This document shows, piece after piece, positions 4,352-32,335 of a stretch of 64,000 nt of DNA; positions within the stretch are counted from its first letter, which is position 1, and every line of letters begins with the position of its first letter. The translations under genes were made by a program, and so were the position numbers. The notes beneath the pieces are model-generated. The model did not search any database and was not told the origin of the DNA. It was given only the letters and a program-made list of their open reading frames with translations. The DNA lies in the NCBI GenBank assembly GCA_021773235.1, contig JAJFKL010000045.1, forward strand, positions 12,150-76,149, written 5' to 3'. The DNA is from Gammaproteobacteria bacterium (GTDB lineage: Bacteria > Pseudomonadota > Gammaproteobacteria > Eutrophobiales > Eutrophobiaceae).

Positions 4352-6046
4352 TTAACGCAGTGGCCAGACTTCTGCTAAGTATTTCCAGTTAACAAAGTAG
4401 TAAAGTACAAAACTCGTAAAAAAGACAACAACCAAAACAATCGTGCCCGGAATCGCAGGATGTTCTTCGTCACCATGCTCGGCAACAACTGCTGCATTTT
4501 CATCGGTAGGTACAGCCGTAGGTGCTTCAGTACTATCAACCTTCTTACCAAAGAATATCGAACCCACTGCAACAGCGATAAACATAGCACCGCCCACCCC
4601 AGCTAAAATTGCACTCATACCATTCAAGCCCATCATCAGATTGGCTGCACCTGGAAAATCATAAGGAAGCACCGCATCAGCCTGAGAAATATCCCAATGG
4701 CGTCTTGGCACACCCAGAGTTCCTGCGCCCATCATGAACACAGAGATACCAGCAACACCCAGTCCGAAGACGTAGGGCTGAAGCTTTGCCATTCCAGGAA
4801 ACATTATCTCTTTTTGAAAAATAAGCGGAATTAATAAATAGGTCACAGCCATAAATGCCAGTGTGGTCCCTGCTACAACGGTCGCATGAAAATGTCCTGG
4901 CACATATATAGTGTTATGAATTATCAGGTTGATTTGCTCAACCCCCATAACAACACCCGATATGCCACCAAGAAAGCCAAACAGTATCAAGGAAACAAAC
5001 ATCCCTGAGAAAGCGGGATTTCCCCATGGGCATTTACGTAGCCATTCAAACAGTCCATTGGTATAGCCTTTACTACGTTGTGCTGCTTCGATCTGTCCTG
5101 GCACAGTCATACCATGAACCATACTTCCGAGTACCGCCAAATAGATGGCATAACTGGTATTAAAGATTTTCCACTCAGAGCTGATACCTGGATCAACTAG
5201 TAAATGATGCGCACTGGCAAGTTGTAGAAACAGTACATAGAGGAGGAAAGCACCGCGACTAACTTTTTCAGACAAGGGTTTTGCACCCAATACCACTGCC
5301 GATATTAAATACCAGATAGAGATATGCGCCGCAACATTGATCTGTTGTGATGAATGTCCAAATGCCCACCATATAGTCCGATACATTAAAGTATCAATAT
5401 GGCTAACATAGCCGATAGACCACAGAAAAGTTGGTATTAGTATGATTGCACCTGATGCAATCGTAAACACAGCAATAATGGCTGCCACCGTTGCACCAAA
5501 GGTTACCAGGGGCACCGAACCTTCATACGTTTTTTCCTGTTTCGCTATTACCAACGTGCCGAAGAAAACAAAGCAACCGATCAAGGCACCCACGGCGAAA
5601 AGTATGACACCTGCGTAAAACGAAGGATCTGCTTTTAATGGCACATAGGATGTAAACATGACACTTGAACCACCCTGTAATACGGCAATATTAGTGACAA
5701 TTGCACCAATCAACATCAAGGCAAAACCAGCCCACGCCCATTTTGGTGTTGCCAGTCGACTCCCTAAAAGTACCGACGAGGCAAAATATAAGACCGCCAT
5801 TTCAAAGAAAATGATCCATACCACCAAGAGATTTATGCCATGTGCGGTAAGCGCAAGATAAAACCAATCTGCAGGTAACAAGTGGACAGCCTTCCAACGC
5901 GTTAATGCCACCATTATCCCAAAGAGTCCACCGACAAGCAGGAAGACTACCGCTACCACGGCGTTTGCCTTAATCAGATTTTCAGCTGATTTATAAACAC
6001 GTAACCCTGTCGTTTGGCATGTTCTGTACTGTTCATTAATTGCCAT
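4352..6046 (-). CDS. Haem-copper oxidase superfamily subunit I, B-family-like, lacking the cross-link tyrosine (candidate NO reductase subunit)
   Basis: 564 aa, about 13 TM. His ligands at TAHGINL (H69), WWAFGHSSQQ (H231), SAHHLL (H280/281) and PGHFHATV (H385/387). Gln sits at H231+4 where HPxVY enzymes have Tyr. Confidence 0.9.
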   Translation of the reverse strand: MAINEQYRTCQTTGLRVYKSAENLIKANAVVAVVFLLVGGLFGIMVALTRWKAVHLLPADWFYLALTAHGINLLVVWIIFFEMAVLYFASSVLLGSRLATPKWAWAGFALMLIGAIVTNIAVLQGGSSVMFTSYVPLKADPSFYAGVILFAVGALIGCFVFFGTLVIAKQEKTYEGSVPLVTFGATVAAIIAVFTIASGAIILIPTFLWSIGYVSHIDTLMYRTIWWAFGHSSQQINVAAHISIWYLISAVVLGAKPLSEKVSRGAFLLYVLFLQLASAHHLLVDPGISSEWKIFNTSYAIYLAVLGSMVHGMTVPGQIEAAQRSKGYTNGLFEWLRKCPWGNPAFSGMFVSLILFGFLGGISGVVMGVEQINLIIHNTIYVPGHFHATVVAGTTLAFMAVTYLLIPLIFQKEIMFPGMAKLQPYVFGLGVAGISVFMMGAGTLGVPRRHWDISQADAVLPYDFPGAANLMMGLNGMSAILAGVGGAMFIAVAVGSIFFGKKVDSTEAPTAVPTDENAAVVAEHGDEEHPAIPGTIVLVVVFFTSFVLYYFVNWKYLAEVWPLR

Positions 6047-6049
6047 TGT

Positions 6050-6595
6050 TTATATCCCCTCGTTATCGACGACATATATCCTGCCGAGCATTGTGTGATG
6101 TCCAATACCACAATATTCATTACAGACGACTCCAAATTCCCCTGTCGTCGTAGGTGTAACTGTGAGCACCATTTCGTAATCAGGATGTATTTGTAAGTTA
6201 ATATTTATCGGCTGCAAAGAAAAACCGTGCATCCAGTCCAAAGAAGATAAGTGAAGTCGATATGACTGACCTTTTTCCAATTCCAGGATTGGCCACCACT
6301 GCCAGAGTCTGGCAATCATATAGACATCTGAACCAGGAGGCGGACGGACAACCGGATAACCGGATTCTTCACGGACTGTATATTTATCCGTCATTGCTTC
6401 AGTTTTTTCAGTGAACTGTTCTGCTGTGATTTTATATGCTTCGTTAGATAAGTTTTGTTCACCATAAGCGTGCCAGTAGATCATCATGAAAAACATAATC
6501 AATCCCCAGACGAAAGCGACGATGACCCAGATAAGCTCGGATTTTGGGACAGAATCATTCCACCAGATCCTGCTTTTTGGAGGGGTAACTGACAT
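6050..6595 (-). CDS. Haem-copper oxidase subunit II with CuA centre
   Basis: 181 aa. N-terminal TM hairpin, cupredoxin domain with HGFSL and the CuA motif CNEYCGIGHHTM. A 3-nt gap separates it from subunit I. Confidence 0.85.
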   Translation of the reverse strand: MSVTPPKSRIWWNDSVPKSELIWVIVAFVWGLIMFFMMIYWHAYGEQNLSNEAYKITAEQFTEKTEAMTDKYTVREESGYPVVRPPPGSDVYMIARLWQWWPILELEKGQSYRLHLSSLDWMHGFSLQPININLQIHPDYEMVLTVTPTTTGEFGVVCNEYCGIGHHTMLGRIYVVDNEGI

Positions 6596-6615
6596 AGTGT
6601 TGTCTCCTTAAATTA

Positions 6616-6792
6616 TTATTTTGCTACAGGGATGGTAATGATTTCCATAATGCCCCAGATAACATAAAAGACAGTTGGAATAGTGACGCCGAGAAAGAGC
6701 AATAGAAAAGGATTATCTATTATCTGTTGCATGACTGGTATTCGTTCAGATTCTGTGTCGCTATCGCTAGACACGCCATTTTCTTCAGACAT
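6616..6792 (-). CDS. Small single-TM protein, first gene of the oxidase operon (possible extra subunit)
   Basis: The track ORF 6616..6843 is trimmed here to the internal ATG at 6792, which has a GGGGG Shine-Dalgarno 4 nt upstream. Acidic N-terminus, then TM FLLLFLGVTIPTVFYVIWGIMEI. Confidence 0.45.
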   Translation of the reverse strand: MSEENGVSSDSDTESERIPVMQQIIDNPFLLLFLGVTIPTVFYVIWGIMEIITIPVAK

Positions 6793-6913
6793 ATCGCCCC
6801 CTAATATATTAAAAGATCGTAGATATACTCTACTTTCATACATTTAATTTGAGTGCGACAATTTGTCCACTCAATTATAGAGAGCCAATCTATGCTGTAT
6901 TTAATCTATATGT

Positions 6914-6927
6914 CTTGACCTAGATCA
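6914..6927 (-). promoter_or_regulatory. FNR/Dnr-type box (TTGAC-CTAG-ATCAA, 9/10) upstream of the oxidase operon
   Basis: Read directly from the sequence. A TAGATT -10-like hexamer lies about 31 bp downstream on the minus strand, which is class II spacing. Confidence 0.55.
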
Positions 6928-6972
6928 AGAAGAATGGTGGAATAATACAACGAACTTATATTTCTAATATAT

Positions 6973-7155
6973 TCAACCACTTAGGGCGCGTATTACAGTA
7001 AAGGAACTCACGGCAAGTATCAAAATAATTACAAAAAAGACTAGACTGCGATACTCAAATTTTCGGCCCGAGGCTTTTTCAATCTGCACCAGTATCCAGT
7101 CTGAACCGAGATAAAGGATAATTCCGGCTAAGGTGTATGCCACTATTTCAGTCAT
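6973..7155 (-). CDS. Small two-TM membrane protein (hypothetical)
   Basis: 60 aa with two hydrophobic helices. AGGAT-like ribosome-binding site upstream. No recognisable motif. Confidence 0.35.
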   Translation of the reverse strand: MTEIVAYTLAGIILYLGSDWILVQIEKASGRKFEYRSLVFFVIILILAVSSFTVIRALSG

Positions 7156-7288
7156 TTGATTTTATCCTGATTCATTGTTTCATAAGGTCATGGTAATAAT
7201 GAATTTGCATTACTCTGTAATTTATTATTTACTCAATTCATAATTTAAAACAACCACTCATTTTAAAATTGTAACGCCTTAATAAACT

Positions 7289-8272
7289 TTGCTTGTATCA
7301 ATCATGCAATTCCTTAAAAGCAATCACTATCCAAAGAAATGTTTTTTTCTTTTGAATTGTAGCGCCTTAATCATGTCGTTACTGATTGTATTTTTAAGCA
7401 CACACATCAGGCTCGGAGAAGCGGGCTTGGGTTGCTCCCCATGGCCTGATTGTTATGCACAGCTCTCTTTTGCTGATGGTCCCAAAGGACTTCAAATACC
7501 GGACTCCGAATTTAAAATATTTCGGTCTATGCATCGCAGCATAGCAAGTATATTGGGTCTTAATATTTTAGTTATCATGTTAATAGCACTTTGGTTTCGC
7601 AAAACAACATCACCGTTATTACCAATATTGATGTTTCTAGTTGTTCTTTTTCTTTCAATATTAGGAATTGCGACACCGACAAGAAGTTTACCCCTTGTTA
7701 CATTGGGAAATATTCTAGGCGGTATAGTTTTGTCAGGTCTTGTATGGAGACAAATCCTGTCGACTAAAGACAGACCGAAAAAATCCGCACCCTTTATTTT
7801 GTTTCTAGTATCTATAACACTGACAGTGCAACTGATCAGTGGTGCCTGGGCAAGTGCAAATTACACGGGATCTGCCTGCCCGAAATTATTATCATGCACC
7901 TATACGAATGACATAACAGGCAACCTGCTCGATAGCTTAAATGTATTACGCAAACTAACACTGGATAGTGATTGCCATCTGATACTGAATGAAACATCCA
8001 GCATTATTCAATTTAACCATAGGCTCATCGCCGTAATATTATTAATAATAATTGTTGTAGCCTTATGGAAAGTAAGACGTGAATACCCCTCTTTACTCAA
8101 ACCATTAATGATTGTCAGTGTTGTTTTCTTTGCTGAGTTTATTCTCGGGGTCGTTAATGTATTAACTGAAATGCCGTTATGGACAAACACACTGCATAAT
8201 TTATTAGCAGTGGGATTATTATTTGCTACGATTAATTTAACGATGCTAATTCATCGCAATAGTGGCCATTAA
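7289..8272 (+). CDS. ctaA: Haem A synthase (COX15/CtaA family)
   Basis: 327 aa, about 8 TM. Cys pair GLGCSPWPDC, a second pair CPKLLSC, and conserved His in SMHRS, FNHRL and LHNLL. Start uncertain (TTG at 7289 or ATG at 7304). Confidence 0.75.
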   Translation: MLVSIMQFLKSNHYPKKCFFLLNCSALIMSLLIVFLSTHIRLGEAGLGCSPWPDCYAQLSFADGPKGLQIPDSEFKIFRSMHRSIASILGLNILVIMLIALWFRKTTSPLLPILMFLVVLFLSILGIATPTRSLPLVTLGNILGGIVLSGLVWRQILSTKDRPKKSAPFILFLVSITLTVQLISGAWASANYTGSACPKLLSCTYTNDITGNLLDSLNVLRKLTLDSDCHLILNETSSIIQFNHRLIAVILLIIIVVALWKVRREYPSLLKPLMIVSVVFFAEFILGVVNVLTEMPLWTNTLHNLLAVGLLFATINLTMLIHRNSGH

Positions 8273-8296
8273 CACTAGATATAACGGGATCATCTA

Positions 8297-8725
8297 ATGA
8301 GTATTGTTTGGAATAATAGAAAAAACTGGGTAAAAAGTGCACACAATACAAAATGGTGCCTGATTGGTTGTTCTATTGGAGATTTTGGTACGATTGCTTA
8401 TTTTCAGTTCAGCGAGCATAGCTTAACAACTATTACCGTTATGCTATTAGCTATGTTAAATGGCCTGTTAACAAGCATCTTACTTGAGACTATTATTTTG
8501 TATCGTTCGAGCTTCAGTTTACGAGATGCATTTATGACTGCTATTGGTATGAGTTTTATCTCCATGTTGGCAATGGAGACCGCAATGAATCTAACAGACT
8601 ATATGTTGACTGGTGGGGCGATATTGACTTGGTGGGTAATCCCCATTGCACTGTTTGTCGGTTTTATAACACCTTGGCCTTATAATTATTGGCGCTTACA
8701 AAGACATGGAAAATCTTGCCATTAA
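8297..8725 (+). CDS. Small 4-TM membrane protein, possibly DUF4396-like
   Basis: 142 aa. WCLIGCSIGDFG motif in the first TM. The family assignment is from memory only. Confidence 0.45.
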   Translation: MSIVWNNRKNWVKSAHNTKWCLIGCSIGDFGTIAYFQFSEHSLTTITVMLLAMLNGLLTSILLETIILYRSSFSLRDAFMTAIGMSFISMLAMETAMNLTDYMLTGGAILTWWVIPIALFVGFITPWPYNYWRLQRHGKSCH

Positions 8726-8811
8726 TAATCAACCGTAAAATTATTTAATCAATCTGATTTAAGTCTGGAAGCGAAACAAACATATCAAATCGATATAAAC
8801 TCTATAACTTA

Positions 8812-10182
8812 TCAACTTTGTATTTGTTCCGTTGATTTATTTAACATCGCTTTGATCACAATAACAATAAACATAAAACCACCAACCGCAGACAGTAACC
8901 CACCTATTCCCATTACGCCCATTCCGGCAATACGCTCTATTGAATCCAAACCCTGTGCAGCGCCAGCAACTTTTCGTTGAACACCGTATCCCCCAGACCA
9001 GACCAGACCGGCAATATGGAGAAACTGTCCTGAGGCATAGAACCAAAGCTGTATTTTCGAAAGCTTGAAATTAACTTTGATAAAACCCAAGGCGGGTAAT
9101 AATTGATAACAAAGCCCCATCAATGCCAATGAAACACCAACAATACAACCATGGTAATGCGCAGGGATCTTGACGTTATTGCCATCAATCATGAAACCCA
9201 TCATGCCCCCTACTCCGAATAACATTAACGAAGTCAGTAAGGCAGCATACGCTGAAGATCCTTTAGCTGAATCTACTTTCTTTTGAAACAGTGTAAATAA
9301 TATCGCCATACTCAACGGAAATACGGCAAGGCTTCCGCCAAAACTCATCAACATAGTAAATATTTGACGATGAGAAATATCTGTAACGTCATACGCATAG
9401 TAAACAAGTGGTGTCGCAAATATTGAGAGCAAACCAACACCAAACAAAAATAAGGCAACTCTCGGACTTAATGGTAGAGAGAGTCCAGCACTCGATAATA
9501 ACCATAACCAGGCCACCATCATTAACAAAGTATAGGTAAATTGAAGTACGTGTCCCCCACCCCAGAAAAGGAGTTCGTAATAAACTTCACTGACTAATTG
9601 AATAGGCAAACTAATGTATGACCAGACAAAGGCTGCCAGCGCGACAAAAACGCCAATCGCTGCACAATTTAATCCAAATCGAATAACACCTTGACCGCTA
9701 ATCGTTTCCCCAACCTTAGTCATTGCACTCATACTGAATATAACTTGCAATCCGATTCCCGCACCGAAAATAACTAGGCCAACAAGAAAAAGTGAATCAT
9801 CCAACACTGGAATATAATTACTCATTAGTGCATTGGCACTGCCCATAAAAGGTGAAATAGTAATTATCAGGGTTCCTAGAAGTACAACAATAAAACTCAA
9901 TCGAGCAAGCCATGGAAATACAGGACGACTATTTAGGCTCCATAGGACACTCGCAAAAGATAATATCCACACTAAAGAAGACAGGTTGACATGTATAACC
10001 AGAGCTGTGTGGAAGAAATCAACGAATGGAATAAGTTCACCGACTATCGGTGTTCTGGCAAGAACCAACAATACTGAGAAAATTCCTGCCCCAAATAAAG
10101 TAAGTATAGCTAACCAGAACCAGGCAACTGCCAGATCTCTTCTATAATCAGTTGGCACGTCAAGTACATATTTAAAAAACAT
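8812..10182 (-). CDS. Divergent NorB/CcoN-like (haem-copper oxidase subunit I-like) 12-TM protein lacking the HH metal-ligand pair
   Basis: 456 aa. FFHTALVIH (H58/H64), LFWGGGHVLQF (H211) and PAHYHG (H342/H344) match the spacing of NorB/CcoN ligands. There is no HH doublet anywhere, and the expected region reads PLVYYAYDVTDISHR. Confidence 0.7.
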   Translation of the reverse strand: MFFKYVLDVPTDYRRDLAVAWFWLAILTLFGAGIFSVLLVLARTPIVGELIPFVDFFHTALVIHVNLSSLVWILSFASVLWSLNSRPVFPWLARLSFIVVLLGTLIITISPFMGSANALMSNYIPVLDDSLFLVGLVIFGAGIGLQVIFSMSAMTKVGETISGQGVIRFGLNCAAIGVFVALAAFVWSYISLPIQLVSEVYYELLFWGGGHVLQFTYTLLMMVAWLWLLSSAGLSLPLSPRVALFLFGVGLLSIFATPLVYYAYDVTDISHRQIFTMLMSFGGSLAVFPLSMAILFTLFQKKVDSAKGSSAYAALLTSLMLFGVGGMMGFMIDGNNVKIPAHYHGCIVGVSLALMGLCYQLLPALGFIKVNFKLSKIQLWFYASGQFLHIAGLVWSGGYGVQRKVAGAAQGLDSIERIAGMGVMGIGGLLSAVGGFMFIVIVIKAMLNKSTEQIQS

Positions 10183-10205
10183 ATCTAATCAGTGACGCTT
10201 ATTAG

Positions 10206-10700
10206 TTAATAACTCAAAATAGACTTTTTATTTGAATCTGATTTTATAAACACCAGACCCATTGCTAAACCAAACAAGAGTTTTGAGATCAAGGTCACTA
10301 TAAGAGGCATTAAGGAAATAAATGATGGATTGAGTATCGGTAAAACAACAAAGAAATTAACAACCCACACAATGGCGAGCGTTGTAAAACTGCATACAAT
10401 AACACTACGGTTACCAAATTGACGAGCTACTGATTTTAATATTATTGCATTAAAAGAAATGGCTAATATCAGTGACAGTATCAAATGGAACAGGATACCA
10501 AGCATCGGTGCATAATAGGAGGTCGCTGTGAAAGGCAATAGTGTCACTGATATTTCTCGCGCTACATTTGTCGCACTAACTGAACTCAGGGAGCTATATA
10601 GACTAACCCAGAAGATTTCCATCATGCCACCAACTATTCCGGCTGTAATCACAGTTACATCTAAACTATTAATCTCGCTGCGGGAATATTTATTCTGCAT
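10206..10700 (-). CDS. Polytopic membrane protein (hypothetical), between nirN and the NorB-like gene
   Basis: 164 aa, 4-5 predicted TM helices, no recognisable motif. Same strand as its neighbours, with short gaps. Confidence 0.5.
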   Translation of the reverse strand: MQNKYSRSEINSLDVTVITAGIVGGMMEIFWVSLYSSLSSVSATNVAREISVTLLPFTATSYYAPMLGILFHLILSLILAISFNAIILKSVARQFGNRSVIVCSFTTLAIVWVVNFFVVLPILNPSFISLMPLIVTLISKLLFGLAMGLVFIKSDSNKKSILSY

Positions 10701-10743
10701 AAAACTTAAATCCTGTTTTTAGAATACCTAGTTTAACGTATTG

Positions 10744-12324
10744 TTAATGACTGGTGCCGCTGGATCTCGTAATTTTATTATAGACATTATATTTCCCAGA
10801 AGGCTTTTTCATCGGGAGTCGTTTAATCTCTTCGAGTGAATTAGCATCATAAATTATAATAGCACCATCGTTATCCCAAATACTCAATATCGCATAGCGT
10901 CCATCTTTTGTGAACTCAACATGCGCTGCTGTTTTACCAGGTTCCGGCTTGAGTGTTTTTACAATTTCCAAAGTGGCTTTGTCGATAATATGAACGACAT
11001 CTTTATTTGGCCCAAAGAACACATCGACCCATGCATAAGGTGTTTTTTCATGACTACGCATAAAGAACCCCGGTCCTTGTGTGTCAATACGTTTAATCGT
11101 CTTCCAGTCATTCATATCAATGACACTAACAACACCGTCTTTCAGGTTTGGGGTGGCGAGTATAGGTTTACCTTGGTATTCCCAAGTAATCCCTGAGCCC
11201 ATATGAGGTAAGCCCGGAAGATCAAGTTCTGAGTCTTTCTTTCCCAGAACCAAATCAACAACCTGGCCATTCTTTGAATTTCTGGCAGCCCCAATCAAGT
11301 ATTCATATTTCTGATCAAAGAAGAAGTCATCTAGATAATCATCCAACTCTATACGGCGCACTGGAAAAGGTTCTTGTTCCGGTGGCCCTTCATCTCGATG
11401 GTCATGTACCCAACCATAAAATGGCGGGTTATCTGAATAAGGAATTTCCCAAACTTCAGTAATGTCTTTTAATGCAGCAATAAAACTTTCACGCGGCCCT
11501 GCATCATAAACAGCACTAACACGTGAACTGTTTCCTGAATTATCTTTTACCTCGATAAGTTTGACCGGTGATAAGTCAGAGGTATTGAATATAACCAGCG
11601 TATGCGGCAAATAATTCGCGGCAATCACGTAACGACCATCACTGGATGTTGCAATGTTGCGTGTGTTTATTCCTGCACGAACTTCTGCCACTGTTTTCAG
11701 GTTATACATATCAAATTTTGATATCCAACCATCTCTCGACACAAAGAATACAAAGCGACCATCGGGTGAATATTTTGGCCCACCATGTAATGCATGTCGT
11801 GTTTTAAAACGGTGAATGGGTTCAAAGCGATCACCATCCAATACTGTTGCATGATGGTCGCCTGTTTCTACAACCAGAAACAGATTGAGAGGGTCAGCAT
11901 CAAATGTTGGTTTATTGCTTAATTGATCGTCCTTGAAATATTGAACGCGAGATTGCGTTATTTCTTTCATTCCCCACGCTGGCATTTCTTTTAATGGGGT
12001 ATAAATAAGATCTACCAGTAATGAAATTTCCTCATCATTTAGCTTACTGCCAAATGCAGGCATTTGCGTTGCTGCTAATCCATCACGTATCGATGCTGCA
12101 GCTTTTTTAGGTCTGACACGTTTTAGGTTTTCCGGGAGTAATGCCGGGCCAATACTGCCGAGACGATCCTGACCATGACATTCGGCACAATTATTTTTAT
12201 ACAATTGGGATACATCTGATTCTGCATAGACAGGAATCAGTCCACTTGTAATTATAATTAATAAAATTGAATTTAAGGTATTGAATCTAGATAACAACGG
12301 CATCGTTTGTGTTTTTCTCTTCAT
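10744..12324 (-). CDS. nirN: Cytochrome cd1-family protein NirN (dihydro-haem d1 dehydrogenase)
   Basis: 526 aa. Signal peptide, haem c motif CAECHG, then a d1-type beta-propeller paralogous to NirS/NirF. Lies after nirJ, as in Pseudomonas nirJEN. The start may be M8 (12303). Confidence 0.8.
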   Translation of the reverse strand: MKRKTQTMPLLSRFNTLNSILLIIITSGLIPVYAESDVSQLYKNNCAECHGQDRLGSIGPALLPENLKRVRPKKAAASIRDGLAATQMPAFGSKLNDEEISLLVDLIYTPLKEMPAWGMKEITQSRVQYFKDDQLSNKPTFDADPLNLFLVVETGDHHATVLDGDRFEPIHRFKTRHALHGGPKYSPDGRFVFFVSRDGWISKFDMYNLKTVAEVRAGINTRNIATSSDGRYVIAANYLPHTLVIFNTSDLSPVKLIEVKDNSGNSSRVSAVYDAGPRESFIAALKDITEVWEIPYSDNPPFYGWVHDHRDEGPPEQEPFPVRRIELDDYLDDFFFDQKYEYLIGAARNSKNGQVVDLVLGKKDSELDLPGLPHMGSGITWEYQGKPILATPNLKDGVVSVIDMNDWKTIKRIDTQGPGFFMRSHEKTPYAWVDVFFGPNKDVVHIIDKATLEIVKTLKPEPGKTAAHVEFTKDGRYAILSIWDNDGAIIIYDANSLEEIKRLPMKKPSGKYNVYNKITRSSGTSH

Positions 12325-13987: not shown

Positions 13988-14420
13988 ATTTCAATCTCAC
14001 AAAATATTCATCAAGTTTAGGCATTGCAAAAGTCGGATAACCTGTTTGTGTTTCAATATCCGCAAGTAAATCTTCTAATTGAGATTCAGATTCTGCAGCA
14101 AGAACAAACCAGACATTAAGTTCATGTGTCCGTTCATAATTATGCGCAACTTCAGGGTAACTATTAACAGCCTCAATAACTTTTTCAAGATCATGTTCAG
14201 GAATTTGCATGGCAACCAAACAATATATGCCTCCAAGCATTTCAATATTATACAATGGCCCAAATCGACTTAAGGTACCATCATCACGTAGTGCTTGAAC
14301 GCGCAGTATTAATTCATTTTCTTCCAGATTTAATTGTTCTGCCAGCATGGCAAAAGGTCTTTCACATACAGGAAAACCTTCCTGCATGTGATTAATGATA
14401 CTTCGGTCAACCTCGTTCAT
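13977..14420 (-). CDS. nirG: Sirohaem decarboxylase subunit NirG
   Basis: Track ORF trimmed to the ATG at 14420, which forms an ATGA overlap with the nirL stop. MNEVDRSIINHMQEGFP is an AsnC-like HTH start. Confidence 0.8.
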   Translation of the reverse strand: MNEVDRSIINHMQEGFPVCERPFAMLAEQLNLEENELILRVQALRDDGTLSRFGPLYNIEMLGGIYCLVAMQIPEHDLEKVIEAVNSYPEVAHNYERTHELNVWFVLAAESESQLEDLLADIETQTGYPTFAMPKLDEYFVRLKFDA

Positions 14421-14935
14421 GTTTTTATTCCAGGCTGTGAAATATAATTTGCCGCGCATTGTTTAAAACGTCTTTTACTAAACAGTACCTCATAAGGCAC
14501 ATCACACCAGTCGTTTTCTGAAATCATTTCTTCTAATAGCAGTGTTACTTCATTACGCGACTTCCCATGAATCATACAAAATAAATTGTAGCGCCATTCG
14601 GGTAATTGTCGGGGACGGCGGTAGCACAATGTAATGAAAGGATAAGATTTGATTTGATTGCCGACAGCCTGAACCTGATCGTCCGCAATATCCCAGACCA
14701 CCATCGCATTCTCCCTATAACCCAATTCATGGTGACGGACCACAACACCAAAGCGTTTAAATAAACCACGCTCTATTAAACTGGATATCCGATTGATGAC
14801 TTCCGCTTCCGAGATACCTAATTGGTCACTAATTTCAGCGTAAGGACGATCGGCTATAGGCAAACCATTTTGTATACTGGCGATTAACTGGTGCTCGATA
14901 TAATCGAGTCCGTTATTATTTAGTGCTGATTCCAT
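14417..14935 (-). CDS. nirL: Sirohaem decarboxylase subunit NirL
   Basis: 172 aa AsnC-like paralogue; second in the D-L-G-H series. Confidence 0.8.
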   Translation of the reverse strand: MESALNNNGLDYIEHQLIASIQNGLPIADRPYAEISDQLGISEAEVINRISSLIERGLFKRFGVVVRHHELGYRENAMVVWDIADDQVQAVGNQIKSYPFITLCYRRPRQLPEWRYNLFCMIHGKSRNEVTLLLEEMISENDWCDVPYEVLFSKRRFKQCAANYISQPGIKT

Positions 14936-25501: not shown

Positions 25502-26185
25502 TTAAACCGAACTGTTTACATATTCTTGTAGACATTCGATGTCTTCGAATACAATATGGCTGCTACGATCAGATATTACGCCATATTCTGTTAATTGATT
25601 GAAAGCACGTGAGAGGGTGCCTGGTTGCACGCCTAAGTGCGCCGCCAATACTGTTTTGTTAAATGGTAGCTCAACGCTTTTTTCATCTGAATGTTGTTCT
25701 ATAAGTTCGAGAAGAAAAATCGCCAATCGTCTCGGAACACACATAGTCTTATATTGTTCAAACTCATTGACCAATGTATTAAGCTGTCCTGACAGGCGCG
25801 CAATTATACGCATAGCAATATCAGGGTCCTCTTGTATCATTTTTCGCAAAGCAGTAAGTTTTATTTCAAGCAGAACACACGATGAAGCTGCGTAGGCATT
25901 TGCAGGATAACGTCCTATCACCAAAGCTGCTGGTTCGGCAAAACTTTCTCCATCCTTAAAAACATGTAAAACCGATTGTTCAGCTTTCGCATTTTCCTTA
26001 ATGATCGATACCCATCCCTGTATGATAAGAAAAAATGCATTTGCCTCATCACCTTGACAAAAGATAATCTCATCTTTGGCAAATGAAATGAGCTTAGATT
26101 TGCTGCAAATCTTTTCAAGTTGGAACTCATTTAATCCTTTAAATAAGGTTGCATTCTGAAGTTTCTCAATTGCATCCGTGATCAT
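25502..26185 (-). CDS. Crp/Fnr-family transcription regulator, Dnr/NnrR-like (no FNR Cys cluster)
   Basis: 227 aa. cNMP-like beta-roll and C-terminal HTH TVLAAHLGVQPGTLSRAFNQL. Lacks the N-terminal CxxCxxxxxC of FNR. Confidence 0.8.
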   Translation of the reverse strand: MITDAIEKLQNATLFKGLNEFQLEKICSKSKLISFAKDEIIFCQGDEANAFFLIIQGWVSIIKENAKAEQSVLHVFKDGESFAEPAALVIGRYPANAYAASSCVLLEIKLTALRKMIQEDPDIAMRIIARLSGQLNTLVNEFEQYKTMCVPRRLAIFLLELIEQHSDEKSVELPFNKTVLAAHLGVQPGTLSRAFNQLTEYGVISDRSSHIVFEDIECLQEYVNSSV

Positions 26186-27748: not shown

Positions 27749-27900
27749 TATTACACCTGCCGTTTATACTCATAGATGAGTGATATTATTGCACGCCTGA
27801 TTCCAGCCATACTCTCACAGCTTCATTGGCTAAACCATATTAATTTATTTAGTCAGAAATTATTCTGATTGAGGATAAGGTAATTAACATTTATTATATA

Positions 27901-27914
27901 TTGATATCGATCAA
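27901..27914 (+). promoter_or_regulatory. Perfect FNR/Dnr box TTGAT-ATCG-ATCAA upstream of the MlaC-like/RND/cytochrome c' operon
   Basis: 10/10 match, read directly. -10-like CATTAT/TATTAA lies about 31-34 bp downstream. The ATG is at 27973. Confidence 0.65.
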
Positions 27915-27972
27915 CATTAATTTTTGACAATAGCTCATTATTAAATGATGGCATTAATGGAGGAAAAATAAT

Positions 27973-28578
27973 ATGAAAAAACGATATTACAAGAACTTAC
28001 AAATTGTTATTTTCTTATATTTCATCTCACATATTAGTGTAGCTATTGGATTGACAGCCGATGAAATTGTCTATGAAACAACTCAGGAAGTTCTAAATCG
28101 ACTTGAAGCTGATAAAGATCGATTGCAGGCAGAAAAAAAATACATAAAGGTAATTGTTCGTGAATTAATTATGCCGCATATGGACTTCAAGACTATGTCA
28201 GCTCTGGCTCTAGGGGGCAACTGGGTGATATTAAATGGCGGCAAACAAGCTTGCTTAAGCCGTGGCTTTAAGAATTTATTAGTCGAACGCTACGCACACG
28301 TTCTATTGAGTTATCGTGATCATAATATTTATTATCAAACTGCCAAACCTATTGGTGAGAAAGACTATGTCTCTGTGATTCAAACATTAACCCGTTCTGA
28401 AACCAAGTCTTCAACAATAGAATACCGTATGCACCCTGATGGTGATAGCTGGAAAGTAGCAGACCTTCTTATAGATGATGTGAGTCTTATCAGAAGCTAT
28501 AGAAAAATATTTCATAAAGAAATAAAACAAGATGGACTTGTAGACTTTATTAAAAGTTTTAAGGAATGTAGTTCATAA
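27973..28578 (+). CDS. MlaC/Ttg2D-family periplasmic lipid-binding protein
   Basis: 201 aa. Signal peptide. ELIMPHMDFKTMSALALGGNW ... FKNLLVERYAHVLLSY is the pattern of the toluene-tolerance/MlaC family. Confidence 0.75.
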   Translation: MKKRYYKNLQIVIFLYFISHISVAIGLTADEIVYETTQEVLNRLEADKDRLQAEKKYIKVIVRELIMPHMDFKTMSALALGGNWVILNGGKQACLSRGFKNLLVERYAHVLLSYRDHNIYYQTAKPIGEKDYVSVIQTLTRSETKSSTIEYRMHPDGDSWKVADLLIDDVSLIRSYRKIFHKEIKQDGLVDFIKSFKECSS

Positions 28579-28617
28579 CACTATAGTTCTCCTGATAGAC
28601 GTATTTATATAAAGTCT

Positions 28618-31092
28618 ATGCCTGTGAAATTTTCGTATATATATAACCGTCTCATACTAAATAATCCTGTTGCGGTTATTCTTATATCTCTGTGCCTCGT
28701 AGCTGTTTCACTCTTTTATTCTTTTAACTTTGAGCTTGATGCATCAGGTGAGTCACTTGTATTAGAGAATGATACGAGCTTGAATTACTACCGCCAAATA
28801 AGTCAAAAATACGCTTCGGACGACTTTATCGTTATTGCATTCAAACCAACCACAAAACTTTTGTCAAAACAGTCTATTAACACTGTTCGTAGCTTACGCG
28901 ATGAACTATTAGAACTCGACAATATAGAATCCGTTAGTTCGATCCTTGATGTGCCTATTATTTATGAATCTGGATTAAAACTATCAGATATCGCAGGTGA
29001 ATTGCAGTCACTTGATTCTCCAAATATAAATTATGACGTCGCATATAAGGAATTCAAATCAAACCCACTCTACAAAGAGTTGATTGTCAGTAAAGACGGG
29101 GCAACAACTGCATTACAAGCCTTATTTAAAAGAGATCCTGGATACGATGCATTATTAAACCGACGCCAACAGTTACAATCATCAACTCATACTTTATCTA
29201 ATAGTGAAATAATTGAACTTGATGAGATAAAACAAAAAATAAAAAACAGGAACAAATTTCTTGCTGAAGTTCGTGAGCAGGATATTAAGCAAATACGCGA
29301 AATAATTGAACGACAACAAGATCAAGGAGAATTATATCTGGGCGGGATACCTATGATCACGGTTGACATGATTCAATTTATTAAACATGACCTGATTGTC
29401 TTTGGTAGCGGTGTATTCTTATTTCTAATCTTAATTCTTTCTCTGTTCTTCCATAAAGTTCGTTGGGTATTATTACCCATGTTGATATGCGCCATTACAG
29501 GCTTAAGCTCAATAGGTTTTATGGGGTTCAGCGGATGGGCGATAACGGTTATATCATCAAACTTCTTATCTATCTTGTTAATTATCACCTTGTCACTAAC
29601 GATTCATCTCATTGTACGTTATAGAGATTTACAATTAACACATCCAACGTCAACAAATAAAGAATTAATTCAACTAACAACTGCCTCAATGGCGCGTCCT
29701 TGCTTTTATACAATACTGACAACGGCTGTTGCATTTGCCTCTTTGGTTGTAAGTGAAATCAGACCGGTAATTGATTTTGGCTGGATTATGGTGATAGGCC
29801 TGAGCATAGCATTTATTGTGAGTTTTACTGTTATGCCAGCATGCTTAACTCTACTTGGCGGAACTGAAACACCTTCTCAAAACGACAGAACAAAAGCCAT
29901 TACATTATATCTCGCTAGATTGGTACATCAAAAGCCAGCTTCTATAATTATTACTTCATTAGTTCTAATGCTTTCTATTGGTTATGGCATTTCAATGCTA
30001 GAAGTAGAAAATAGGTTTATAAATAATTTCAAATCTGATACTGAAATTTATCAAGGCATGAAATTAATTGATAATGAATTAGGTGGCACGATGCCTTTGG
30101 ACATCATTATTGACCCTGATACGTCTTTTATAGAGATGAGAGATGAACTCGCAGCTGAAACTAATGAGTTGGATGATTTATTTTTTGATGAAGCGGGGGA
30201 GTTATCTGAGCCTAATTATTGGTTAAACCCAACTATGCTGGATAAGGCAAAGTCATTGCATGAATACCTGGAGTCACATTCTGTTATAGGGAAGGTAATT
30301 TCAATTGTTACGTCATTAAGTATTGTTGAAAAATTAAACGGTGCGCCCTTTGATGAATTTGAATTAGCCTTAGTACGAAAACGCATTCCAGAGTCTATTG
30401 CTGGCGATCTTGTAAGTCCCTATCTATCAGATGATTCTAATCAATTACGTTTCAGTATACGTATCATTGAATCTGATCCAGGTTTAAATCGAAAAGCATT
30501 ATTGAATAATATTTATAATTACCTAATCGACGATTTAGAATTTGAAAATAATCAAGTACATTTGACAGGGATGATGGTGCTTTATAACAATATGTTGCAA
30601 AGCCTCTATCGCTCACAAATCTTAACCATAGGCGCTGTTTTTACTGCTATTCTAATAATGTTCATTATTTTATTCAGAAACATGCATCTTGCATTAATTG
30701 CCATAATTCCTAACATATTTTCAGCCATATTAATTCTTGGGATTATGGGTTGGGCTGGTGTACCACTAGACATGATGACGATAACAATCGCTGCAATAAC
30801 AATTGGTATTTCCGTTGATAATACCATTCATTATTTACACCGCTTACAACACGAATATCCACTTTGCCACGACTATGAAGAAGCTATCAACCTCTGTCAT
30901 GGCAGTATTGGGAAAGCGATGTACTACACATCTATTGCAATTATGTTTGGCTTTGCATTACTTTCATTTTCAAATTTTATCCCGACAATATACTTTGGGC
31001 TACTCACCAGTTTTGCCATGTTTGTAGCTTTAATTGGTGATTTATTATTATTGCCCGCGATTGTATTAGTCATGAAACCAAAGATCGTATGA
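28618..31092 (+). CDS. RND/MMPL-superfamily exporter (HpnN-like putative lipid transporter)
   Basis: 824 aa. 1+5 TM / large loop / 1+5 TM architecture with two periplasmic loops, a duplicated sterol-sensing-like bundle, and the GxSxDNxIH motif (GISVDNTIHY). Confidence 0.85.
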   Translation: MPVKFSYIYNRLILNNPVAVILISLCLVAVSLFYSFNFELDASGESLVLENDTSLNYYRQISQKYASDDFIVIAFKPTTKLLSKQSINTVRSLRDELLELDNIESVSSILDVPIIYESGLKLSDIAGELQSLDSPNINYDVAYKEFKSNPLYKELIVSKDGATTALQALFKRDPGYDALLNRRQQLQSSTHTLSNSEIIELDEIKQKIKNRNKFLAEVREQDIKQIREIIERQQDQGELYLGGIPMITVDMIQFIKHDLIVFGSGVFLFLILILSLFFHKVRWVLLPMLICAITGLSSIGFMGFSGWAITVISSNFLSILLIITLSLTIHLIVRYRDLQLTHPTSTNKELIQLTTASMARPCFYTILTTAVAFASLVVSEIRPVIDFGWIMVIGLSIAFIVSFTVMPACLTLLGGTETPSQNDRTKAITLYLARLVHQKPASIIITSLVLMLSIGYGISMLEVENRFINNFKSDTEIYQGMKLIDNELGGTMPLDIIIDPDTSFIEMRDELAAETNELDDLFFDEAGELSEPNYWLNPTMLDKAKSLHEYLESHSVIGKVISIVTSLSIVEKLNGAPFDEFELALVRKRIPESIAGDLVSPYLSDDSNQLRFSIRIIESDPGLNRKALLNNIYNYLIDDLEFENNQVHLTGMMVLYNNMLQSLYRSQILTIGAVFTAILIMFIILFRNMHLALIAIIPNIFSAILILGIMGWAGVPLDMMTITIAAITIGISVDNTIHYLHRLQHEYPLCHDYEEAINLCHGSIGKAMYYTSIAIMFGFALLSFSNFIPTIYFGLLTSFAMFVALIGDLLLLPAIVLVMKPKIV

Positions 31093-31111
31093 AACTATTC
31101 TTAGCCTTAGA

Positions 31112-31573
31112 ATGAACAGAAACTTTTATATTTTCATAAGCTTCCTTATCTGTCTGATGAGTACACCTACAGCTCATTCAGAAAGCGACTTGCCAATATC
31201 ACCTGAGAAATTAGAGTTCCATGTTGTTTACAGCGAAGGCTTACGCGATATCATGCGGCGATTAAATCAATTGGTTTATAAAAAAGAATTGAGTGATCTA
31301 AATAAAAATGAGTTACGTAATCAACATCTGGAAGAGTTAGTTTATACCGTTAATGAGTTAGGTTTTGCTGCAATAGTTTTGCAAGAAGCGTTGTCTGGTT
31401 TTGATTTAAGTACAGAAGAAAAAGACATTTTTCATGCACTCGCCATACAACTGCAAAAAGAAGCCGAAAATATTAAAGAAATGGCCGAACAAAATGATAC
31501 GGTTAATATGGAACGTTCTTATAAGCGACTAAATGACACATGTGCTGCTTGTCATGAACTGTTTCGGTTCTAA
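31112..31573 (+). CDS. Class II (four-helix-bundle) c-type cytochrome, cytochrome c'-like
   Basis: 153 aa. Signal peptide, helical sequence, and a single CAACHELFRF haem motif at the extreme C-terminus. Confidence 0.7.
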   Translation: MNRNFYIFISFLICLMSTPTAHSESDLPISPEKLEFHVVYSEGLRDIMRRLNQLVYKKELSDLNKNELRNQHLEELVYTVNELGFAAIVLQEALSGFDLSTEEKDIFHALAIQLQKEAENIKEMAEQNDTVNMERSYKRLNDTCAACHELFRF

Positions 31574-31600
31574 TTTAAAGTTAATATTGGTGATATATAT

Positions 31601-32335
31601 TTACCAATCCTCAAGCGCAGTGCGAAGGTCAACCTCGAATGTCCAGCCTGTTTTTGGCTGTTGATATAAAAATTCATAAGCATCGACAATGCTCTCGATA
31701 TTTATCATTCCTTCTTCGCCTAATTTATCAGCATAGTCACTAAAATTGATATTGGCTTTTTCACCATTTATTAAACCATCTATAACAACATGTCCAACGT
31801 GAATACCCTCTTGTCCGACTTCTTTAGCCATAGCTTGAGCAAGCGTCCTTAGTGCTGCTTTAGATGCATTAAAAGCTGAAAACCCAGCACGACCACGTAA
31901 GGAAGCACTGGCGCCTGTATACAAGATTGTACCCGCACGGTTGGTTTGCATATGCCGAATAGCTTCTCGGCCAAATAAAAACCCACCAAAACAACATGAC
32001 TGCCATGCCTTTTCAAAATAATCAGCTTCCATGTCGATAATACGTCCTGGAAAATTATTCCCAACATTATAAATTGCTACGTTAACAGAACCTATTTCAT
32101 TAGCAGTATTAAACAGCTTGTTGATTTGAGACTCATCGGTGCAATCGGTTACAAGTGCCGTGGCCATACCACCATTTGTCTCAATGGCAGAAACTACATT
32201 CTCTAATTTAGATTGTGTACGTCCGGCTACGACAACATGCCTGCCTAATGAAGCAAATCGTTTGCAAAGCGCACCACCCAATCCATTCTCGGGACCAACG
32301 CCGATGATGATCGCAGTATCCATTAATTTATCCAT
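31601..32335 (-). CDS. Short-chain dehydrogenase/reductase (SDR)
   Basis: 244 aa. Gly-rich nucleotide motif IIGVGPENGLGGA and catalytic S...YxxxK-like region (ASASL...FNASKAAL). Confidence 0.85.
   Translation of the reverse strand: MDKLMDTAIIIGVGPENGLGGALCKRFASLGRHVVVAGRTQSKLENVVSAIETNGGMATALVTDCTDESQINKLFNTANEIGSVNVAIYNVGNNFPGRIIDMEADYFEKAWQSCCFGGFLFGREAIRHMQTNRAGTILYTGASASLRGRAGFSAFNASKAALRTLAQAMAKEVGQEGIHVGHVVIDGLINGEKANINFSDYADKLGEEGMINIESIVDAYEFLYQQPKTGWTFEVDLRTALEDW

Follow-up and report, generated by a model that had tools for sequence, protein, structure and literature searches.

We analyzed a 64,000-nt stretch of a Gammaproteobacteria genome (GenBank assembly GCA_021773235.1; hereafter, the window), in which a box matching the FNR consensus TTGAT-N4-ATCAA precedes three closely packed genes encoding a MlaC-family protein (MlaC-A), a transporter of the resistance-nodulation-division (RND) superfamily (RND-A), and a class II cytochrome c. 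Below, genomes are denoted by G labels (G000 being the window's genome), contigs by C labels, and fetched loci by L labels; the window corresponds to contig C40 in an assembly of 2.87 Mb with 81% completeness, whose closest public relatives are metagenome-assembled genomes of uncultured marine Gammaproteobacteria/Thiotrichaceae. The features of the locus are as follows.

27901–27914, no strand assigned: FNR-type box TTGATATCGATCAA, a 10/10 match to the consensus, conserved upstream of related genes
27939–27944, + strand: putative −10 hexamer TATTAA, starting 24 nt past the box; comparable hexamers (4/6 matches or better) occur in orthologous loci
27959–27964, + strand: Shine-Dalgarno sequence GGAGGA, 8 nt 5' of the ATG, read from the sequence
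27973–28578, + strand: MlaC-A, secreted lipid carrier of the MlaC/Ttg2D family, 201 aa, N-terminal signal peptide (PF05494)
28618–31092, + strand: RND-A, MMPL/HAE3-like RND transporter, 824 aa (PF03176)
31112–31573, + strand: periplasmic class II (four-helix-bundle) cytochrome c, 153 aa, signal peptide, C-terminal CAACH (PF01322)

The genes are separated by 39 nt (MlaC-A and RND-A) and 19 nt (RND-A and the cytochrome; 4–18 nt in relatives), no terminator-like hairpin was found between them, and they appear to be packed as one transcription unit in the window's genome. The cytochrome stop codon is only 27 nt (31574–31600) away from the stop codon of a convergent short-chain dehydrogenase/reductase gene (31601–32335, − strand), and between the two stops lies a weak, AT-rich inverted repeat (TTGGT..ACCAA), a possible bidirectional terminator. 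The box is separated by 58 nt from the ATG at 27973. Two perfect TTGAT-N4-ATCAA sites are present in the window, compared with 0.30 expected, and two were reached in four out of 100 shuffled sequences. A preliminary description of the window had reported a perfect box ahead of the first ATG and, behind it, a MlaC-family gene, an 824-aa RND/MMPL gene, and a class II cytochrome c gene with CAACH, close-packed on one strand; all of these are indeed present.

How far the box is conserved was assessed across the order, represented by 126 species-level genomes; in GTDB, this order comprises one family only. Pumps of the window type (RND-A, at least 54% identical) were found in 27 of these genomes, and a second type, RND-B, 42–47% identical to the window pump, is near-universal in the order (in G000, at C23:252076-254526). 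Neighborhoods were fetched for 20 RND-A loci, 18 of which could be assessed for the box, and 21 RND-B loci from the same order, with 400 nt upstream searched, served as a control. In 20 out of 20 fetched loci, RND-A is immediately preceded by a MlaC gene. A perfect box was observed upstream of 14 out of 18 assessable RND-A loci versus none of 21 RND-B loci, and a box with at most one mismatch, at 17 out of 18 versus one out of 21, respectively. In the RND-A loci it is mostly positioned 53–63 nt before the start codon, with diverged intergenic sequence around it, and it is kept in genomes whose RND-A is only 55–89% identical to that of the window, including other genera.

In the maximum-likelihood tree of the RND proteins, RND-A forms one clade, consisting solely of genomes of the window's own family (Shimodaira–Hasegawa-like approximate likelihood ratio test, SH-aLRT, 100), and the cytochrome-bearing loci form one sub-clade inside it (SH-aLRT 97); rows L018 and L026, where the longest-open-reading-frame rule had selected a wrong frame, yielding very long branches, were ignored. 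Outside the family, 400 genomes of the class were sampled, and 27 RND homologue loci were fetched from other families. The matches to RND-A in this sample are at most 50% identical, an adjacent MlaC gene was undetectable at 26 out of 27 loci, and no perfect box was found within approximately 400 nt upstream of any of the 27, with one box lying approximately 800 nt upstream. The RND-B gene is also accompanied by a MlaC gene, and the order RND-B–MlaC–murA is kept in 18 out of 21 genomes; in G000 (C23:252076-255380; L039, positions 5062-8420), RND-B and then MlaC lie directly upstream of murA, hisG, and hisD. The murA neighborhood is the usual site of mlaFEDCB in other Gammaproteobacteria. As judged from these comparisons, the conserved unit is the box with MlaC and RND-A, a family-specific paralogue of the box-less RND-B–MlaC–murA pair.

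The position of the box relative to the predicted promoter was considered next to its conservation. In class II FNR/ANR promoters, such as those of Escherichia coli FNR and Pseudomonas aeruginosa Anr, TTGAT-N4-ATCAA is centered near −41.5 and overlaps the −35 region, and the −10 element follows the box by about 22 nt. The putative −10 hexamer TATTAA would set the center of the window box near −41.5 to −43.5, that is, in the class II geometry. The −10 region ATTATTAA is invariant across the four closest genomes, and ATGGAG is kept in relatives at the Shine-Dalgarno site. Each of the 17 RND-A loci with a box has, 21–25 nt past it, the start of a hexamer that matches TATAAT in at least four positions out of six, and strict TAnnnT occurs at that spacing in nine of these 17 loci, compared with 16% in the background. 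On this evidence, the box in front of the MlaC–RND pair is a genuine, phylogenetically conserved FNR-type site, predicted to occupy a class II position.

Four genes of the Crp family were identified in the genome as candidates for the cognate regulator. Two of them (C34:9718-10485 and C18:18036-18761) encode proteins with the FNR signature C-x2-C-x5-C and an ETVSR recognition helix, the third protein is encoded in the window (25502–26185, − strand, 227 aa) and has no Cys cluster and the recognition helix GTLSR, and the fourth is CRP-like. The Glu of the E--SR motif contacts TTGAT, and the target of the window protein is probably not the canonical FNR box. Its best NCBIfam match is FtrB, below the cut-off, and the gene is syntenic in G098 and G102. 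Genome-wide, 40 perfect boxes were found versus approximately 7.5 expected from the base composition, about 24 of them being intergenic; the latter precede hemN, two genes of tandem Usp proteins, a gene of a ccoI/fixI-type ATPase, and genes of hemerythrins, a NapF-like ferredoxin, and PAS chemoreceptors. In its predicted membership, this 40-site set is a typical FNR/Anr regulon. A perfect box TTGATCTAGATCAA is found 166 nt upstream of the second FNR-type gene (C18:17856-18761), which suggests an FNR cascade or autoregulation. An FNR orthologue was detected in 26 out of 27 genomes with RND-A and in 47 out of 99 other genomes; moreover, fnr divergently adjoins the operon in G105 and lies on the same contig, close to RND-A, in G109.

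As the regulators fitting the box carry the FNR Cys cluster, the sensor is likely of the oxygen type rather than of the Dnr type responding to nitric oxide (NO). The box could instead be the operator of an NO-responsive regulator of the Dnr/NnrR type, an obvious candidate being the Crp-family protein encoded at 25502–26185, 1.7 kb upstream. Dnr-type regulators do recognize FNR-like boxes, a Crp/Fnr-family gene without the Cys cluster is indeed nearby and keeps its synteny in two relatives, and the denitrification genes of the window are preceded by similar boxes. However, the GTLSR helix of this protein has no Glu of the E--SR motif; its gene was undetected within the 5–13 kb fetched around most of the box-keeping RND-A loci; the same genome encodes two FNR proteins that have both the Cys cluster and the ETVSR helix, and the gene adjoining the operon in G105 is fnr; finally, three out of five genomes with the cytochrome at the locus show no NO-producing nitrite reductase. 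We consider the Dnr-type operator unlikely, and activation by an oxygen-sensing FNR appears to be the most economical reading. Thus, of the induction by anaerobiosis or NO that had been proposed originally, we retain control by oxygen limitation, supported by the FNR-type regulators with Cys clusters, and not the Dnr-type NO sensor.

The identity of the two conserved proteins was addressed by comparison with family profiles and solved structures. MlaC-A had been described as a periplasmic protein of the MlaC/Ttg2D family, and this assignment is well supported: it scores 122 bits with PF05494 (Pfam cut-off 26), a hydrophobic signal sequence can be recognized at the N-terminus of the translation, and its best solved relatives are MlaC/Ttg2D-type proteins (E-values from 4e-14 to 1e-10). 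More specific assignments failed, both for MlaC proper (NF011697, 49.7 bits versus the cut-off 195) and for HpnM (TIGR03481, 57.9 bits versus 160.1). The genome contains six MlaC genes, one of which is MlaC-A, two MlaA genes, and two MlaE genes. A MlaC–MlaA pair at C33:20703-21963 is similar to the HpnM/HpnS module that has been proposed.

RND-A scores 108 bits with PF03176 (cut-off 20.5) over two stretches and has additional sterol-sensing and SecDF-C matches; with HAE3, it scores 170 bits, far under the cut-off. Its weak relatives among solved structures are an NPC1-related protein, HpnN, and MmpL5. The RND-A/B family lacks the Asp of HpnN in transmembrane helix (TM) 4 and keeps the TM10 motif G-I-[SA]-V-D-[ND]-[TS]-I-H-Y, which reads GISVDNTIHY in RND-A. 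As HpnN, the pump scores 96 bits versus 752 (TIGR03480) and 82.5 bits versus 1100 (NF052374), and was rejected. A true HpnN (849 bits) is encoded on another contig (C38:33766-36309), 1.8 kb away from the squalene-hopene cyclase gene shc (791 bits, C38:38096-39952), so that the label "HpnN-like," given to the window pump in the preliminary description, has to be dropped. Since the true HpnN gene is located beside shc, the lineage is predicted to make and export hopanoids; and given several MlaC, MlaA, and MlaE genes and a separate HpnN, RND-A and MlaC-A likely constitute one of several lipid-traffic modules.

These profile matches also bear on the possibility that the pump exports solvents, drugs, or other small molecules, with the MlaC-like protein acting as a Ttg2D-like tolerance factor. 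In favor of this, RND pumps are known for their versatility, some members of the MlaC family owe their name to toluene tolerance, and the operon has no gene for an outer-membrane partner. On the other hand, RND-A belongs to the MMPL/HpnN/NPC1-like branch with the sterol-sensing-domain signature, not to the AcrB-type HAE1 pumps, no gene of a membrane-fusion protein or an outer-membrane factor was seen adjoining it, and its sister paralogue, together with mlaC, adjoins murA, that is, occupies the usual mla neighborhood. We find an efflux function highly doubtful, and proceed from envelope-lipid transport as the predicted role of the pair.

The third gene differs from the first two both in how precisely its product can be classified and in its distribution. 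The cytochrome scores 31.3 bits with PF01322 (cut-off 26.5), the match being confined to the last 50 residues, and its single CxxCH haem motif (C144-A-A-C147-H148) lies five residues from the C-terminus. The PDB profile matches are limited to helices C–D and comprise cytochromes c' and a small soluble cytochrome c of Kuenenia, and because of this limited coverage the residue at the distal site cannot be placed by homology. The AlphaFold2 model contains four helices (pLDDT, the predicted local distance difference test score, 67), and a Foldseek search with it matched nothing more specific than four-helix bundles, b562 and cytochrome c' among them, none at E<=0.001; the model is consistent with the four-helix fold class, without a specific assignment. 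In helix A, His37, Ser41, and Ile47-Met48 do not vary within the close family and vary little among paralogues with 30% identity, and therefore the haem may equally well have Met or His as its sixth ligand, in the manner of low-spin c-556 or b562 types, or be five-coordinate as in cytochrome c'. The protein had been introduced as a cytochrome c'; the profile match and the CAACH motif support its assignment to class II cytochromes c, and a strict reading as a five-coordinate, NO-binding c' is not supported, as the invariant Met or His of helix A might coordinate the haem.

The cytochrome gene is located directly behind RND-A in only four out of 126 genomes (G000, G114, G102, and G098), which fall into one sub-clade within one genus. 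In a fifth genome, G104, it is found 4 kb downstream of RND-A, past inserted genes on the opposite strand; in this locus (L014, contig G104:C18), approximately 4 kb of mostly opposite-strand genes occupy positions 7810-11636, and a second, shorter cytochrome-like open reading frame lies at 14211-14498. This arrangement may have arisen by insertion into an existing triad, or it may predate the fusion. The remaining RND-A loci examined have unrelated genes downstream of the pump.

A word-based protein search yielded 25 close relatives of the cytochrome, down to approximately 45% identity. In other species of the genus, the best match (40–48% identical) stands alone, within another conserved neighborhood, and such stand-alone genes often have their own FNR-type box, perfect in L031 and L033 and with one mismatch in L032, L035, and L036. 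Over the orthologues and paralogues taken together, the box has no mismatches in L031, L033, L009, and L010, and one in L032, L035, L036, and L008. The window's genome encodes three paralogues of the cytochrome (31–36% identical; sites C10:123350-123901, C14:184327-185198, and C11:162887-163288), with two perfect boxes and one box with a single mismatch upstream, and none of the three adjoins RND or MlaC genes. Thus, the genome has four anaerobically boxed four-helix haem proteins. No perfect site that could be the window cytochrome's own box was found in 30300–31130. The simplest history is that one gene of the FNR regulon came to lie behind another FNR-regulated operon, and the cytochrome is probably a recent, lineage-specific addition.

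These observations can be confronted with the interpretation of all three genes as one module, in which an NO-binding cytochrome c' would be coupled to anaerobically or NO-induced lipid remodeling by an HpnN-like exporter. In its support, the genes are tightly packed behind a single box; in G000, the locus adjoins an island of nirS, nirN, nirF, nirT, and a norB-like gene; the best PDB matches of the cytochrome are the NO-binding Kuenenia small cytochrome c and cytochromes c'; and the genome is predicted to make hopanoids, judging by shc (791 bits). However, the cytochrome immediately follows RND-A in four species only and is 4 kb away in the fifth, its orthologue stands alone elsewhere, the pump is not HpnN, the true HpnN being encoded beside shc, and the haem may be six-coordinate, Met or His of helix A being possible sixth ligands. 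Likewise, no nirS, nirK, or norB was shown in G114, G102, and G104, three out of five genomes with the cytochrome at the locus, of which G104 is 100% complete; G098 has nirK and norB. The preliminary description had regarded the triad as a functional unit linked to NO and denitrification, naming beforehand a chance juxtaposition as the outcome that would speak against it; the neighborhood survey revealed a near lineage-specific juxtaposition, and neither the unit nor the denitrification link is upheld. We consider the single-module interpretation very unlikely.

A different possibility is oxygen-dependent isoform switching, in which a second shuttle, driven by the proton-motive force and induced by FNR under anoxia, would differ in lipid specificity from the housekeeping RND-B–MlaC pair and thereby remodel the outer membrane, and the haem protein would have been recruited in the window's sub-lineage as its working partner, perhaps sensing redox state or NO, or carrying a redox-active lipid, and acting on the shuttle. 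We regard this reading, taken as a whole, as quite unlikely.

Taking all this into account, we favor, as the probable explanation, an oxygen-limitation isoform of a MlaC–RND lipid shuttle, transcribed from an FNR-activated class II promoter, which the cytochrome joined by operon fusion. An oxygen sensor of the FNR/ANR type with a [4Fe-4S] cluster would bind TTGAT-N4-ATCAA and activate the class II promoter of a core two-gene operon, mlaC-A and rnd-A, encoding a periplasmic lipid carrier and a proton-driven MMPL-type RND pump of the inner membrane. The rnd-B–mlaC–murA pair would be the constitutive, box-less counterpart, and envelope-lipid traffic would be adjusted when the cell turns micro-oxic or anoxic. 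In the ancestor of a few species, the cytochrome gene would have moved behind rnd-A, to be read from the operon promoter; its presence there would reflect co-regulation via operon fusion, not a mechanism shared with the lipid shuttle. The genes present, the conservation of the box and its spacing to the promoter-like element, the paralogy, the distribution of the cytochrome, and the occurrence of cognate regulators are directly observed; FNR activation, co-transcription, the lipid substrate, and the transport direction are inferred. Control of an envelope-lipid transporter by oxygen limitation is a reasonable expectation because the predicted class II box is conserved and the genes are tightly packed.

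Several observations weigh against this explanation. In the counts of conserved boxes, related genomes are non-independent observations; the box is degenerate in the close relative G098 (TTAATGTGGATCAA), L030 has no good box, and the nearest box in L025 is approximately 700 nt away. The triad is present in G114, yet its assembly, 85% complete, yielded no FNR. The operon encodes no MlaA-type outer-membrane partner. Finally, a promoter-like sequence TTGAGG-17-TATTAT at 27869–27897 ends 3 nt before the box and would put the start site inside it, so that repression is possible for the window's sub-clade.

If so, FNR would act as a repressor, with transcription starting from TTGAGG-17-TATTAT, the box lying over the start site, and the pair being the aerobic isoform. 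The promoter-like match is immediately next to the box, and the block upstream of it is nearly invariant in the four closest genomes. This block, though, is not conserved beyond the sub-clade, unlike the box and the −10-like element at class II spacing; promoter-like matches in the AT-rich region are no commoner than in shuffled sequences (26 found versus 22.9 expected); and the block may serve the divergent NYN gene. We give repression a slim chance, and activation from the class II promoter is retained. As for the block itself, about 45 nt just 5' of the box (window 27869–27900; ATTGAGGA..GGTAATTAACATTTATTATATA) are almost invariant in these four genomes, the rest of the intergenic region having diverged, and contain the promoter-like match; a second regulator could bind there, or the block could act as an UP element or drive the divergent NYN gene. 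Inspection by eye revealed no convincing match to NarL-type heptamers in it.

Upstream of the operon, the window contains nirS, nirN, nirF, and genes of a NirT-type cytochrome and a NorB-like oxidase, followed by cysG and the Crp-family regulator. The window nirS, from the island in 1–23000, is 85–94% identical to those of G074, G121, and G122, genomes of other genera, and was not found in the closest relatives of the window's genome; in G098, the slot to the left of cysG (C14:35315-39561) is occupied by nirK and a norB-like gene instead of the nirS island. This suggests that the denitrification cassette at this site is swappable and moved horizontally.

Relative to the preliminary description, the result is narrower with respect to the cytochrome and NO, and wider in that the FNR-boxed MlaC–RND pair appears as a family-wide paralogue. 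How lipids move to and from the outer membrane of Gram-negative bacteria is still debated, and shuttles consisting of MlaC and RND proteins have been proposed only recently. An FNR-boxed copy beside a box-less housekeeping copy would provide a natural contrast between regulated and constitutive versions, from which a retuning of envelope-lipid traffic upon oxygen depletion is predicted. As E. coli FNR recognizes the same box, a heterologous assay of the promoter is feasible for this uncultured organism. The cytochrome, in turn, calls for caution, as the tight packing of this operon most likely reflects two joined members of a regulon and not a shared mechanism.

The components of the locus may be compared with several known systems. 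Like other class II cytochromes c, such as cytochrome c' of Alcaligenes xylosoxidans (1e85), low-spin c-556 types, and Kuenenia Kusta0087 (6r6m), the window cytochrome has a predicted four-helix bundle, C-terminal CxxCH, and a signal peptide; it differs in that the similarity can be recognized only in helices C–D, and in the invariant His37 and Met48 of helix A. The promoter resembles class II promoters of E. coli FNR and P. aeruginosa Anr in its identical half-sites, a spacing that would fit a putative −10 element, and cognate regulators, and hemN, usp, ccoI/fixI, and hemerythrin genes carry the same box in G000 as in the FNR/Anr regulons. No MlaC–RND lipid transporter is described as a member of an FNR/Anr regulon in the full-text literature searched.

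For HpnM and HpnN, a MlaC-like carrier and an RND hopanoid exporter have been proposed to form a hopanoid shuttle (PMC12324291). The window pair is similar to HpnM–HpnN (HpnN structures 5khn and 6wu0) in that a MlaC-family protein and a 12-TM MMPL-type RND pump are encoded side by side; it differs in being placed behind an FNR box, outside the hopanoid cluster, in scoring far under the HpnN and HpnM cut-offs, and in the TM4 motif of the pump, which lacks the Asp. For the mlaA-mlaC-RND operon of Campylobacter jejuni (Cj1371–Cj1373), a route of phospholipids driven by the proton-motive force and possibly anterograde has been proposed, and no oxygen-sensor control is described there (bioRxiv 10.64898/2026.08.28.747810). 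As with Cj1372/Cj1373, MlaC is co-encoded with an MmpL-like RND pump in the window; unlike the C. jejuni operon, there is no mlaA, and mlaC precedes the RND gene with a 39-nt gap instead of overlapping codons, and the window pair is a second, regulated copy beside the housekeeping RND-B–MlaC.

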